A DNA stretch of 5,051 bases from a virus (Duplodnaviria; Heunggongvirae; Uroviricota; Caudoviricetes), in the IMG/VR virus record IMGVR_UViG_2645727562_000017; one strand, given 5' to 3'. Position 1 is the first letter of the stretch. Each line of letters starts with the position of its first letter. This document shows positions 2,253-4,895 of the stretch, in pieces. The position numbers and the translations under genes were made by a program. The notes beneath the pieces were generated by a model that searched no databases, was not told the origin of the DNA, and saw nothing but the letters and a program-made list of their open reading frames with translations.

Positions 2253-2442
2253 GGGACACCTCCACCACCGGCAGACGGGCAGCAAGGGAGAGCACATAGT
2301 CACGGACAAGGGAACGGCGGGCGCTGCGTTCATCACCGGCGACGGTGCGAAGCATACAGATACGGGGATGACGGTCTGCGCGACGGACAGCCGCAAACAC
2401 AAAGACAAATTCAGGGTGTGAAGGGGTAAGGGTTGTAGCCAT
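2245..2442 (-). CDS. kil: Kil-like small protein, 65 aa; first translated gene downstream of the PLE-like promoter
   Basis: ORF track 2245..2442 (-), 65 aa. GGAGG Shine-Dalgarno 8 nt upstream of the ATG, embedded in the seqC-like repeat. Size and position match the recalled P4 kil. Confidence 0.6.
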
Positions 2443-2453
2443 GAAGGCAGCCT

Positions 2454-2496
2454 CCGTTAGAGTAGCAAATAACTGCTATCGCCGGAGTTCCCACGC
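2454..2496 (-). promoter_or_regulatory. Downstream copy of a bipartite direct repeat (candidate seqC-type target for the immunity RNA), overlapping the kil RBS
   Basis: Plus-strand CCGTTAGAGT (2454-2463) and GTTCCCACGC (2487-2496) recur at 2724-2733 and 2741-2750. On the leftward transcript these read GCGUGGGAAC ... ACUCUAACGG. Confidence 0.45.
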
Positions 2497-2693
2497 TCGA
2501 TGGCGATAGCCCAGACGGGGGTAAGAATACCGGCCTCGAACGAATACCGGCCAGCCCGGAGGCTGCCCCGCCTGAGCTACCATTGACTCAGCGGCATAAC
2601 AAGCGAACGCGAACAGGATGCACGGAATGCCACCTGCACGACAAACCACACACCACACCATAATCTGGCGCTCTGTGGCGTTGATTGCGACAC
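2497..2693 (-). ncRNA. cI: Approximate location of the P4-type immunity RNA (cI-like) within the untranslated PLE leader; exact ends not determined
   Basis: About 250 nt between promoter and kil with no convincing protein gene. The leftward transcript has several GC-rich hairpins (CUGAG-N10-CUCAG; CAGCC-UCCG-GGCUG; paired GGCCGG elements), consistent with a processed structured RNA. The track's 90-aa ORF 2476..2748 lies here and is unlikely to be a real gene. I could not locate the complementary seqB segment by eye. Confidence 0.3.
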
Positions 2694-2715
2694 AAAAAAA
2701 GACGCATGGCGCGTC
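2694..2715 (-). terminator. Candidate intrinsic terminator/attenuator in the PLE leader
   Basis: Leftward transcript reads GACGCG-CCA-UGCGUC followed by UUUUUUU (plus-strand A7 at 2694-2700; stem from plus 2701-2715). Short 5-6 bp stem, so probably weak. Confidence 0.35.
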
Positions 2716-2723
2716 ATATGTCG

Positions 2724-2750
2724 CCGTTAGAGTTACACGGGTTCCCACGC
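2724..2750 (-). promoter_or_regulatory. Upstream copy of the bipartite direct repeat (candidate seqA-type target) in the 5' leader of the PLE transcript
   Basis: CCGTTAGAGT (2724-2733) + 7 nt + GTTCCCACGC (2741-2750). Same two boxes as at 2454-2496 but with a 7-nt rather than 23-nt spacer. Confidence 0.45.
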
Positions 2751-2753
2751 CCG

Positions 2754-2809
2754 GCTGCCGATTTTGCGGCAGCGGAAAAACTATATCCGCAAATGCCGGA
2801 AAAAGGCAA
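2754..2809 (-). promoter_or_regulatory. Sigma70-type promoter for the leftward immunity/early transcript (PLE-like), with a perfect inverted repeat at the predicted start
   Basis: Minus strand: -35 TTGCCT (2809-2804), 18-nt spacer, -10 TATAGT (2785-2780). Immediately downstream is GCTGCCG-ATTTTG-CGGCAGC (2754-2773), a 7-bp perfect inverted repeat. Lies about 40-65 nt downstream of the vis stop. Confidence 0.5.
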
Positions 2810-2844
2810 GCCAGAAAAAGGGACTTTTTGCAGAGCAGGCATCA

Positions 2845-3111
2845 TCATGCGTCGTACCCCCGTTTGCGTCCGGCAATGCGCCCGGCCATCCATGCGGTGA
2901 CTTCAGAGTGCAGCCAGGCCACATTTTTACCGCCAAGACTCACCTGCGGCGGAAATTCCCCCTTACGGATGAGTTCATAGATGGTCGAGCGTGACAGGCC
3001 GCACAGGTGCATCACTTCCGGCAGACGTAAAAAACGCTCCTGCGTGATGTCCGGCAGCGGCATCAGTGGCGTCACAGGGGCGGGAGACGGGGAAGAAAAA
3101 ACAGCTTGCAT
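2845..3111 (-). CDS. vis: AlpA/Vis-family small DNA-binding regulator (P4 Vis-like; late-promoter regulator / excision factor), 88 aa
   Basis: ORF track 2845..3111 (-), 88 aa. GAGGT Shine-Dalgarno 7 nt upstream. Contains the AlpA-type helix-turn-helix signature LSRSTIYELIRKGEFPPQVSLGGKNVAWLHSEV. First gene downstream of the leftward late promoter. Confidence 0.8.
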   Translation of the reverse strand: MQAVFSSPSPAPVTPLMPLPDITQERFLRLPEVMHLCGLSRSTIYELIRKGEFPPQVSLGGKNVAWLHSEVTAWMAGRIAGRKRGYDA

Positions 3112-3164
3112 CGGGCTACCTCGTTAATGTCCATACAGCACCGGATAAGTCCGTCCGGCTTCGG

Positions 3165-3231
3165 GTAGCGCTTTATTTTGTGAATATTTTCAGCAGACGC
3201 AACAGGGGGAATTTGTTCCGGCAACCTTACA
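3165..3231 (-). promoter_or_regulatory. Leftward late promoter (PLL-like) with Ogr/Delta-type activator dyad
   Basis: TGT-N12-ACA at 3214-3231 (TGTtccggcaaccttACA). No -35. A CACAAA element about 40 nt away on the minus strand (3182-3177) parallels the CACAAT of the rightward promoter. Predicted start near 3167, about 55 nt upstream of vis. Confidence 0.6.
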
Positions 3232-3346
3232 ATGCCTGTGTATTTTTTATCCATCCCCACTGAAAGGCACTCAAAGCCACCTAAAGCAACTCGAAATTTT
3301 TATAGTGAAATACAAATCGTTTTTTCTTATTCATTCCCAGCGAATT

Positions 3347-3520
3347 AATAAAAACAAACAGTAATAAACAGCACAAAAAGCCCATCAACGGGTGAACAGT
3401 GGTGAACAGACGGTGAACAGTCATTACTGCGATTGTTCACCCTTTAACTTACTGTATTACTTATCTTTTTTCTTATGGTGAACAGAGGTGAACAGTAAAA
3501 TATAAAAAAACAAACAGTAA
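3347..3520. repeat. Iteron cluster in an AT-rich region (P4 crr-like cis replication element; predicted binding sites for the alpha C-terminal domain)
   Basis: Octamer GGTGAACA (rc TGTTCACC) at 3391-3398, 3401-3408, 3412-3419, 3477-3484, 3487-3494 (10-11 bp phasing) plus one inverted copy TGTTCACC at 3434-3441. Flanked by a 15-bp direct repeat AAAAACAAACAGTAA at 3350-3364 and 3506-3520. Many AACAG pentamers; adjacent AT-rich tract 3250-3370. Confidence 0.72.
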
Positions 3521-3573
3521 GCCGGTTTTTCCTGCGACCTTTTCCTGGCTTGCCGGTCTGAGGATGAGTCTCC

Positions 3574-3640
3574 TGTGTCAGGGCTGGCACATCTGCAATG
3601 CGTCGTGTTGTTGTCCGGTGTACGTCACAATTTTCTTAAC
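3574..3640 (+). promoter_or_regulatory. Rightward late promoter (Psid-like) with Ogr/Delta-type activator dyad
   Basis: TGT-N12-ACA at 3574-3591 (TGTgtcagggctggcACA). No -35. -10-like CACAAT at 3626-3631. Predicted start near 3638, 26 nt before the sid ATG. Confidence 0.62.
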
Positions 3641-3663
3641 CTGAAGTGACGAGGAGCCGGAAA

Positions 3664-4398
3664 ATGTCTGACAACACCATCCCTGAATATCTGCAACCCG
3701 CACTGGCACAACTGGAAAAGGCCAGAGCCGCCCACCTTGAGAACGCCCGACTGATGGATGAGACCGTCACGGCCATTGAACGGGCAGAGCAGGAAAAAAA
3801 TGCGCTGGCGCAGGCCGACGGAAACGACGCTGACGACTGGCGCACGGCCTTTCGTGCAGCCGGTGGTGTCCTGAGCGACGAGCTGAAACAGCGCCACATT
3901 GAGCGCGTGGCACGCCGGGAACTGGTACAGGAATATGACAATCTGGCCGTGGTGCTGAATTTTGAACGCGAACGCCTGAAAGGGGCGTGTGACAGCACGG
4001 CCACCGCCTACCGGAAGGCACATCATCACCTGCTGAGTCTGTATGCAGAGCATGAGCTGGAACACGCCCTGAATGAAACCTGTGAGGCGCTTGTCCGGGC
4101 AATGCATCTGAGCATCCTGGTACAGGAAAATCCGCTCGCCAACACCACCGGCCATCAGGGCTACGTCGCACCGGAAAAGGCTGTCATGCAGCAGGTGAAA
4201 TCATCGCTGGAACAGAAAATAAAACAGATGCAAATCAGCCTCACCGGCGAGCCGGTTCTCCGGCTGACCGGACTGTCAGCGGCAACACTCCCGCACATGG
4301 ATTATGAGGTGGCAGGCACACCGGCACAGCGCAAGGTGTGGCAGGACAAAATAGACCAGCAGGGAGCAGTGCTTAAGGCCAGAGGACTGCTGTCATGA
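3664..4398 (+). CDS. sid: Sid, capsid size-determination (external scaffold) protein, 244 aa
   Basis: Track ORF 3646..4398 starts at a GTG without an RBS. The ATG at 3664 has GAGGAG 7 nt upstream and gives 244 aa beginning MSDNTIPEYLQPALAQLEKARAAHLENARLMDET, which matches what I recall of P4 Sid. Stop overlaps the delta start (ATGA at 4395-4398). Confidence 0.9.
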   Translation: MSDNTIPEYLQPALAQLEKARAAHLENARLMDETVTAIERAEQEKNALAQADGNDADDWRTAFRAAGGVLSDELKQRHIERVARRELVQEYDNLAVVLNFERERLKGACDSTATAYRKAHHHLLSLYAEHELEHALNETCEALVRAMHLSILVQENPLANTTGHQGYVAPEKAVMQQVKSSLEQKIKQMQISLTGEPVLRLTGLSAATLPHMDYEVAGTPAQRKVWQDKIDQQGAVLKARGLLS

Positions 4399-4895
4399 TT
4401 TACTGCCCGTCGTGTGGACATGTTGCTCACACCCGTCGCGCACATTTCATGGACGATGGCACCAAGATAATGATTGCACAGTGCCGGAATATTTATTGCT
4501 CTGCGACATTTGAAGCGAGTGAAAGCTTTTTCTCTGACTGTAAAGATTCAGGAATGGAATACATTTCAGGCAAACAGAGATACCGCGATTCACTGACGTC
4601 AGCCTCCGGCAGTATGAAACGCCCGAAAAGAATGCTTGTTACCGGATATTGTTGTCGGAGATGTAAAGGCCTTGCACTGTCAAGAACATCGCGGCGTCTG
4701 TCTCAGGAAGTCACCGAGCGTTTTTATGTGTGCACGGATCCGGGCTGTGGTCTGGTGTTTAAAACGCTTCAGACCATCAACCGTTTCATTGTCCGCCCGG
4801 TCACGCCGGACGAACTGGCAGAAAGCCTGCATGAAAAACAGGAACTGCCGCCAGTACGCTTAAAAACACAATCATATTCGCTGCGTCTGGAATGA
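4395..4895 (+). CDS. delta: Delta, late-gene transcriptional activator; tandem duplication of an Ogr-type zinc finger, 166 aa
   Basis: ORF track 4395..4895 (+), 166 aa. Two copies of C-X2-C-X22-C-X4-C: CPSC...CRNIYC in the first half and CRRC...CTDPGC in the second, the Ogr/Delta hallmark. Confidence 0.9.
   Translation: MIYCPSCGHVAHTRRAHFMDDGTKIMIAQCRNIYCSATFEASESFFSDCKDSGMEYISGKQRYRDSLTSASGSMKRPKRMLVTGYCCRRCKGLALSRTSRRLSQEVTERFYVCTDPGCGLVFKTLQTINRFIVRPVTPDELAESLHEKQELPPVRLKTQSYSLRLE

Follow-up and report, generated by a model that had tools for sequence, protein, structure and literature searches.

Predicted Ogr/Delta activator sites at the late promoters PLL and Psid of a P4-type satellite prophage

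The intergenic region between vis and sid raises one main question: what activates the two divergent operons that begin on either side of it? We addressed this question in a window of 5,051 nt, i.e., the whole stretch of DNA analyzed here, which aligns end to end with positions 5924 to 10970 of P4 (X51522) at 97.8% identity and which, on this alignment, is a P4-type satellite prophage. The gene order is that of P4, with alpha (5' part), orf106, orf151, epsilon, the immunity region, and vis/orf88 on the minus strand and sid, delta, and psu (start only) on the plus strand. The vis-sid intergenic region is 552 nt long and contains the P4 replication origin. Vis is identical to P4 ORF88 at 87 of 88 residues and Delta to P4 Delta at 162 of 166 residues (98%), with the zinc-finger motifs CX2CX22CX4C of Delta at residues 4 to 35 and 87 to 118. 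Hence, a cognate activator with the CX2CX22CX4C motif is encoded in cis by delta, within the sid operon. Altogether, as detailed below and in Table 1, we consider with a probability of about 0.9 that the dyads at 3214 to 3231 and 3574 to 3591 are the predicted Ogr/Delta activator sites of the late promoters PLL and Psid of this P4-type satellite.

The immunity side of the window, which lies downstream of PLL, is also P4-like. Rfam matches on the minus strand comprise the C4 antisense RNA (the P4 CI immunity RNA) at 2499 to 2587, an isrK-type leader at 2695 to 2773, and the c4 a1/b1 target at 2734 to 2786. The isrK 5' end at 2773 marks the early promoter PLE, in agreement with the PLE -10 hexamer TATAGT running from 2785 to 2780. 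Somewhere within 2661 to 2845, from the cI region to vis, the window has 4 bases more than P4, and coordinates are shifted by +4 thereafter.

[quoted passage not shown] The P4 activator Delta is homologous to Ogr, and the late genes of both P2 and P4 are activated by both proteins (PMC8628076, PMC7552001). The late-promoter consensus is given as TGT-N12-ACA in a passage of PMC3931495 that cites Christie & Calendar 1985 and Julien & Calendar 1995. The original prediction had placed this pattern once in front of each operon, and exact matches are indeed found at both places, TGTTCCGGCAACCTTACA on the vis side and TGTGTCAGGGCTGGCACA on the sid side. A third exact intergenic dyad, TGTCCGGTGTACGTCACA, was absent from that prediction; it overlaps the Psid -10, its ACA being part of the hexamer.

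Since the pattern fixes just six bases, the first reading to be weighed is that these dyads match a low-information pattern by accident, the promoters being driven by something else. As expected from such a pattern, 1.10 exact matches are predicted per window and 4 are observed, a weak enrichment that 4 of 200 shuffles also reach, and the one-mismatch versions occur at the chance rate over the whole window (28 versus 22.6 expected). Moreover, one of the four exact matches is itself accidental: the dyad TGTCGTTTTTTAATTACA at 1504 to 1521, at the end of orf151, was considered as a fourth site and rejected because P4 lacks it and no -10-like hexamer accompanies it at the required distance. Against the chance reading, three of the four dyads fall within the 552-nt vis-sid intergenic region, where 0.16 to 0.23 would be expected; the probability of at least two matches there is 0.012 to 0.025, and that of at least three is 0.001 to 0.002. 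The arrangement of the promoters and their conservation, described below, also bear on this reading.

Table 1. Coordinates of the late promoters and neighboring features (window positions; minus-strand hexamers are given in the direction of transcription)
Feature	Position	Strand	Remarks
vis (orf88)	2845-3111	-	AlpA-family regulator; Pfam Phage_AlpA, E = 7e-21; first gene downstream of PLL
PLL transcription start, predicted	3167-3170 (~3168)	-	7 nt beyond T3175 of the -10
PLL -10 hexamer CAAAAT, probable	3180 to 3175	-	4/6 vs TATAAT, including A2 and T6; overlaps CACAAA at 3182 to 3177
PLL activator dyad, predicted; TGTAAGGTTGCCGGAACA on the transcribed strand	3214-3231	-	Exact match; center 3222.5, ~-54.5 from the predicted start
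Three to four 10-bp-phased repeats (CACTGAAAGG CACTCAAAGC CACCTAAAGC AACTCG...)	3257-3292		Period-10 tandem repeat; just upstream of the PLL dyad
ori type 1 iterons, GGTGAACAG / TGTTCACC	3391-3494		Between PLL and Psid; P4 annotation shifted by +4; tandem repeats detected
Psid activator dyad, predicted; TGTGTCAGGGCTGGCACA	3574-3591	+	Exact match, same as P4; center 3582.5, ~-55.5 from the predicted start
Conserved Psid block TCGTGTTGTTGT	3603-3614	+	Between dyad and -10, ~-35 to -24; -35 score of at most 2/6, hence no -35 hexamer
Psid second dyad TGTCCGGTGTACGTCACA	3612-3629	+	Exact; centered at ~-17.5, over the -10
Psid -10 hexamer CACAAT	3626-3631	+	4/6 vs TATAAT; 34 nt past the dyad
Psid transcription start, predicted	3637-3639 (~A3638)	+	7 nt beyond T3631 of the -10; sid ATG follows after 26 nt
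sid	3664-4398	+	P4 annotation, homologues found; first gene of the Psid operon
delta	4395-4895	+	Late activator; two fused Ogr-like zinc-finger domains; Pfam Ogr_Delta, two matched stretches

As previously proposed for both promoters, no recognizable -35 hexamer was found, the best match to TTGACA at a spacing of 16 to 18 nt being 2/6 at Psid and 2 to 3/6 at PLL. A scan of positions 2400 to 3800 with the sigma-70 consensus returned PLE as its sole hit and called neither late promoter. Thus, with a weak -10 and no -35, sigma-70 polymerase should not use PLL or Psid unaided.

The position of the -10 hexamers required one correction to the original prediction, in which CACAAT and CACAAA lie about 40 to 44 nt from the dyad centers. 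Both hexamers are present, 43.5 nt (Psid) and 40.5 nt (PLL) from the respective centers, and the Psid one stands; the PLL frame is probably 2 nt off. At PLL, CACAAA (3182 to 3177, minus strand) matches TATAAT at 3/6 positions, against 4/6 for the overlapping CAAAAT. In other P4-like families, the aligned stretch reads GACATAAT or CACACAAT, giving CATAAT (family L165) or CACAAT (family L178) in the CAAAAT frame, while the CACAAA frame gives GACATA or CACACA instead. Because of these aligned sequences, the hexamer conserved at PLL is CA(A/T/C)AAT and not CACAAA, and we regard CAAAAT as the more likely PLL -10. A CAnAAT hexamer beginning 42.5 to 43.5 nt from the dyad center would, therefore, be common to both late promoters. 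The CACAA(T/A) motif loses its status as a separate shared element, as it corresponds to the weak -10 region, is 2 nt out of register at PLL, and is absent from the four P2 late promoters. Such a CAnAAT hexamer, found 33 to 34 nt from both promoter dyads, is hardly what chance matches would produce.

At PLL, the distance from the dyad to CAAAAT is 33 nt, and the same 33 nt is found in family L180. The predicted PLL start lies ~395 nt upstream of the PLE start (isrK 5' end, 2773), in agreement with the ~400 nt that presumably separate PLL from PLE in P4. At Psid, the block between the dyad and the -10 is kept as TCG(T/A)GTTGTTGT in all Sid families examined. The second Psid dyad is invariant among P4-type haplotypes, and other families read TGT-N12-AGA at that position; Julien & Calendar 1995 reportedly footprinted a second Delta site near -18 of Psid.

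The geometry of the two promoters was compared with that of phage P2, using the late transcription starts and activator sites annotated in the P2 RefSeq record; the P4 and P2 GenBank records contain no promoter annotation for PLL or Psid. The P2 PO/PP dyad TGTGTCAGTGATAAGCCA is centered at -55.5 from both annotated starts, and the PF dyad TGTGCTGTCGATTAGCCA at about -57.5 from its annotated start. The corresponding distances in the window, counted back from starts that were predicted from the -10 hexamers, are 55.5 nt to the center of the Psid dyad and 54.5 nt to that of the PLL dyad. Furthermore, the Psid dyad and the P2 PO/PP site have the left half-site TGTGTCAG in common. None of the P2 late promoters carries an exact TGT-N12-ACA; with one mismatch allowed, TGT-N12-CCA is found at PO/PP and at PF, and PV has no match at up to one mismatch. 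As P2 late promoters do without the exact pattern, it is not a requirement, and it does not classify such promoters sharply. Set beside the P2 sites, the two sites of the P4 type come closest to the consensus. We also asked whether either dyad could act in both directions, in the manner of the P2 PP/PO site; this idea was rejected, as no [C/T]AnnnT hexamer was found 38 to 49 nt from either promoter dyad on its far side.

Conservation was examined at two scales. The intergenic region is present in 1,007 of 5,426 complete Escherichia coli genomes at 92 to 99% identity, and the P4-type sample comprised 145 loci with 123 distinct haplotypes from E. coli genomes, metagenomes, and IMG/VR. Among these 123 haplotypes, little or no variation affects the Psid -10 and the two Psid dyads, and the whole Psid region of the window from 3505 to 3670 is 100% identical to P4. 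The PLL half-sites TGTTC/CTTACA are invariant save for one rare variant at 3230, and the variation of the PLL dyad falls in its spacer, at 3219 and 3222 to 3225. Relative to P4, 4 of the 12 spacer bases of the window PLL dyad are changed (CCGGCAAC versus CAGGCTGT), the half-sites being intact. One element of the P4 type (L003, URND01000141.1), with a Delta 98% identical, is binned as "uncultured Clostridiales bacterium" and is probably a mis-binned enterobacterial contig; the label Vagococcus sp. of a Sid homologue (P0109) may reflect similar mis-binning.

A scan of genome contigs with Delta yielded a single near-identical locus. Beyond the P4 type, searches with Delta returned only near-identical two-domain proteins and single-domain proteins of 35 to 48% identity, and loci were collected via Sid instead. 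This cross-family sample comprised 23 loci with Sid 56 to 67% identical, all with the vis / intergenic / sid-delta-psu layout. At the Psid position, TGT-N12-ACA is exact in every one of these loci, 90 to 93 nt before the sid ATG, with seven different spacers and the extended consensus TGTG(C/T)CA-N4-TG(C/T)CACA. The distance from this dyad to a CA(C/G)AAT -10 is always 34 nt in all families tested, the hexamer being CAGAAT in the loci with Sid 56 to 67% identical. Half-sites held at a set spacing around a variable spacer are how a dimeric activator site should look. The conservation of the Psid dyad despite changed spacers in all sampled loci at 56 to 67% Sid identity, together with PLL half-sites that stay invariant while their spacer and the adjoining cassette vary, speaks against chance matches, which we consider extremely improbable as an account of the two promoter dyads.

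The two-domain Delta of 166 amino acids was found in the P4 type only; the other sampled families (L171 to L180, L088) have a single-domain Delta of 75 to 87 amino acids, and we take the satellites with such a single-domain Delta to be phiR73-like. In L175 and L176, a 240-nt gap without a called gene separates sid from psu.

If the dyads are genuine sites, they could be operators for a protein other than Delta or Ogr, such as Vis/AlpA, helper Cox, the alpha replication protein, or host CRP. The region doubles as a replication origin, Vis is annotated as a regulator, and helper P2 Cox activates P4 PLL via upstream cox-boxes with the consensus TTAAA(G/C)NC(A/C) (PMC3936717), so that Cox does bind upstream at PLL. 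The Cox boxes differ in consensus from the dyads, however, and sit upstream of the PLL dyad, at 3257 to 3292. Likewise, the alpha iterons read GGTGAACAG and are located elsewhere, at 3391 to 3494. The left half-site of Psid, for its part, equals that of the annotated P2 activator site at PO/PP. Identical Vis proteins occur beside differing neighboring sequences, which argues neither for nor against Vis acting at the invariant dyad. The CRP consensus TGTGA-N6-TCACA corresponds to TGT-N10-ACA, and CRP-dependent promoters were rejected on this spacing, both dyads being N12. Another DNA-binding protein as the true user of these sites is, therefore, very unlikely in our view, and the Ogr/Delta activators remain the predicted ligands.

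The situation differs between the two promoters when the other families are considered. Outside the P4 type, a PLL-position dyad with an exact N12 spacing was found in L180 only; elsewhere, a TGT-N11-ACA palindrome, TGTAGTGnnnCACTACA, was found in four loci, and no recognizable dyad was found at this position in six. Loci with an N11 palindrome or without a dyad at the PLL position include L088, L168, L171, and L177 (~117 to 119 nt before the vis ATG) and L090, L165, L173, L175, and L178. Across these families, conservation of the activator site is much poorer at PLL than at Psid. This raises the possibility that Psid is the only true Delta/Ogr promoter, the PLL dyad being minor and PLL being activated mainly by helper Cox at the upstream repeats. 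The PLL dyad is indeed lineage restricted, with N11 palindromes or none in most other families, the Psid dyad, by contrast, is present in every sampled locus, and the activation of PLL by Cox is documented (PMC3936717). Among the 123 haplotypes of the P4 type, the PLL half-sites nonetheless stay invariant beside a hypervariable cassette, and the 33-nt spacing from dyad to -10 recurs in the independent family L180. Deho et al. 1988 and Julien & Calendar 1995 reportedly found P4 PLL to be Delta dependent and footprinted at -55. We consequently hold a minor role of the PLL dyad to be unlikely and retain it as a predicted activator site.

The sequences directly upstream of the PLL dyad behave very differently from the promoter. 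The 10-bp-phased repeats at 3257 to 3292 correspond to those annotated in P4 as "ori type 2 repeats," which are P2 Cox boxes. Within 3100 to 3670, the differences between the window and P4 concentrate at 3210 to 3300, and the P4 cox-boxes TTAAAG have become TGAAAG, TCAAAG, and CTAAAG in the window, with the TT lost from all three. The cassette, at 3232 to 3300 in the window, was compared in 142 loci over the segment between the PLL dyad and TATAGTGAAA. Three types are common (61, 51, and 29 loci), and the window carries a fourth type, seen in the window alone among these 142 loci. In the 5,426 E. coli genomes, the window cassette gave no megablast match, and the best blastn match was 86%. Thus, the cassette is hypervariable among elements that are otherwise 92 to 99% identical and lies beside an invariant promoter. 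It does not covary with Vis, because an identical Vis protein (WP_001149160.1) occurs in loci with differing cassettes. In the satellites with a single-domain Delta, other phased repeats (GTTTGCC and GGCCA types) replace the cox-boxes upstream of the PLL position.

From these comparisons, we tentatively suggest, at clearly less than even odds, that the late-promoter core of dyad, -10, and leader may be fixed across P4-type satellites and that the cox-box cassette could be an exchangeable helper-sensing module. If the cassette sets the helper Cox to which PLL responds, the window element would answer to another P2-like helper or would no longer sense Cox, and cassette swapping would be a mechanism of helper-range evolution. 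The hypervariable cassette is the sole part of this analysis that could open a new line, on the way in which satellites select their helpers.

We propose the following model for the late expression of this element. Its sequence elements with their geometry and conservation, as well as the activator gene, are those observed here; the binding, the contact with the C-terminal domain of the alpha subunit, the starts, and the feedback are borrowed from the P2/P4 literature. The activator would come either from the element itself, as Delta with its two fused Ogr-like domains, or from a P2-type helper, as Ogr. Bound as a dimer equivalent on the dyad at about -55, it would recruit RNA polymerase via the alpha subunit C-terminal domain. 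This would result in transcription from PLL (minus strand, start near 3168) into vis and the leftward operon and from Psid (plus strand, start near 3638) into sid-delta-psu. As delta lies within the Psid operon, Psid would thus constitute a positive-feedback loop that helper Ogr could trigger. A second and independent input to PLL would be helper Cox, acting at the 10-bp repeats directly upstream of the dyad.

How does this compare with the original prediction? Its reading of the region as a pair of activator-dependent late promoters of the P2/P4 type agrees with a Psid identical to that of P4, with conserved PLL half-sites, and with a geometry that, counted from the predicted starts, matches the -55.5 of P2. 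The further suggestion that Delta or helper Ogr drives both operons needs one amendment: delta is encoded here and the literature supports the role of both activators, but Delta/Ogr is not the sole input to PLL, because helper Cox activates it as well via the cox-boxes upstream of the dyad (PMC3936717).

The Delta/Ogr-activated PLL and Psid promoters of P4, with their dyads at about -55 and no -35, have been described since the 1980s and 1990s, and the two-dyad finding is a rediscovery of known P2/P4 biology. The gain is one of annotation: both late promoters of this prophage are now placed, with probable -10 hexamers and predicted starts. Moreover, the arrangement seen at Psid, with a dyad followed after 34 nt by CAnAAT, recurs without exception in the P4-like loci sampled, of which the most distant have 56% Sid identity.

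Among known systems, P4 is the closest. At Psid, both dyads, the -10, and the downstream sid-delta-psu genes are the same, not one base differs between 3505 and the sid ATG, and no promoter difference is detectable in elements that are 97.8% identical as a whole. At PLL, the position upstream of vis/orf88, the half-sites TGTTC...CTTACA, the -10 region, and the leader are shared with P4, whereas 4 of the 12 spacer bases and every box of the adjoining Cox-box cassette differ. The Ogr-dependent late promoters PP, PO, PV, and PF of P2 resemble those of the window in having a weak -10, no -35, and a repeat at about -55, a position that in the window is counted from predicted starts. P2, however, uses one site for the divergent PP and PO, while in the window each promoter has its own site, 360 bp from the other and across the origin from it, and the P2 late -10 hexamers GAAACT, GAAAAT, TAGCCT, and CAATCT, none of which contains CACAA, are unlike the CAnAAT of the window. 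Finally, the P4-like satellites with a Delta of 75 to 87 amino acids share with the window the divergent layout of vis and sid-delta-psu around the intergenic region and the TGT-N12-ACA dyad 90 to 93 nt before sid; they differ from it by TGT-N12-AGA at the -18 site, by a PLL-position dyad that is N11 or absent, and by other repeats upstream.
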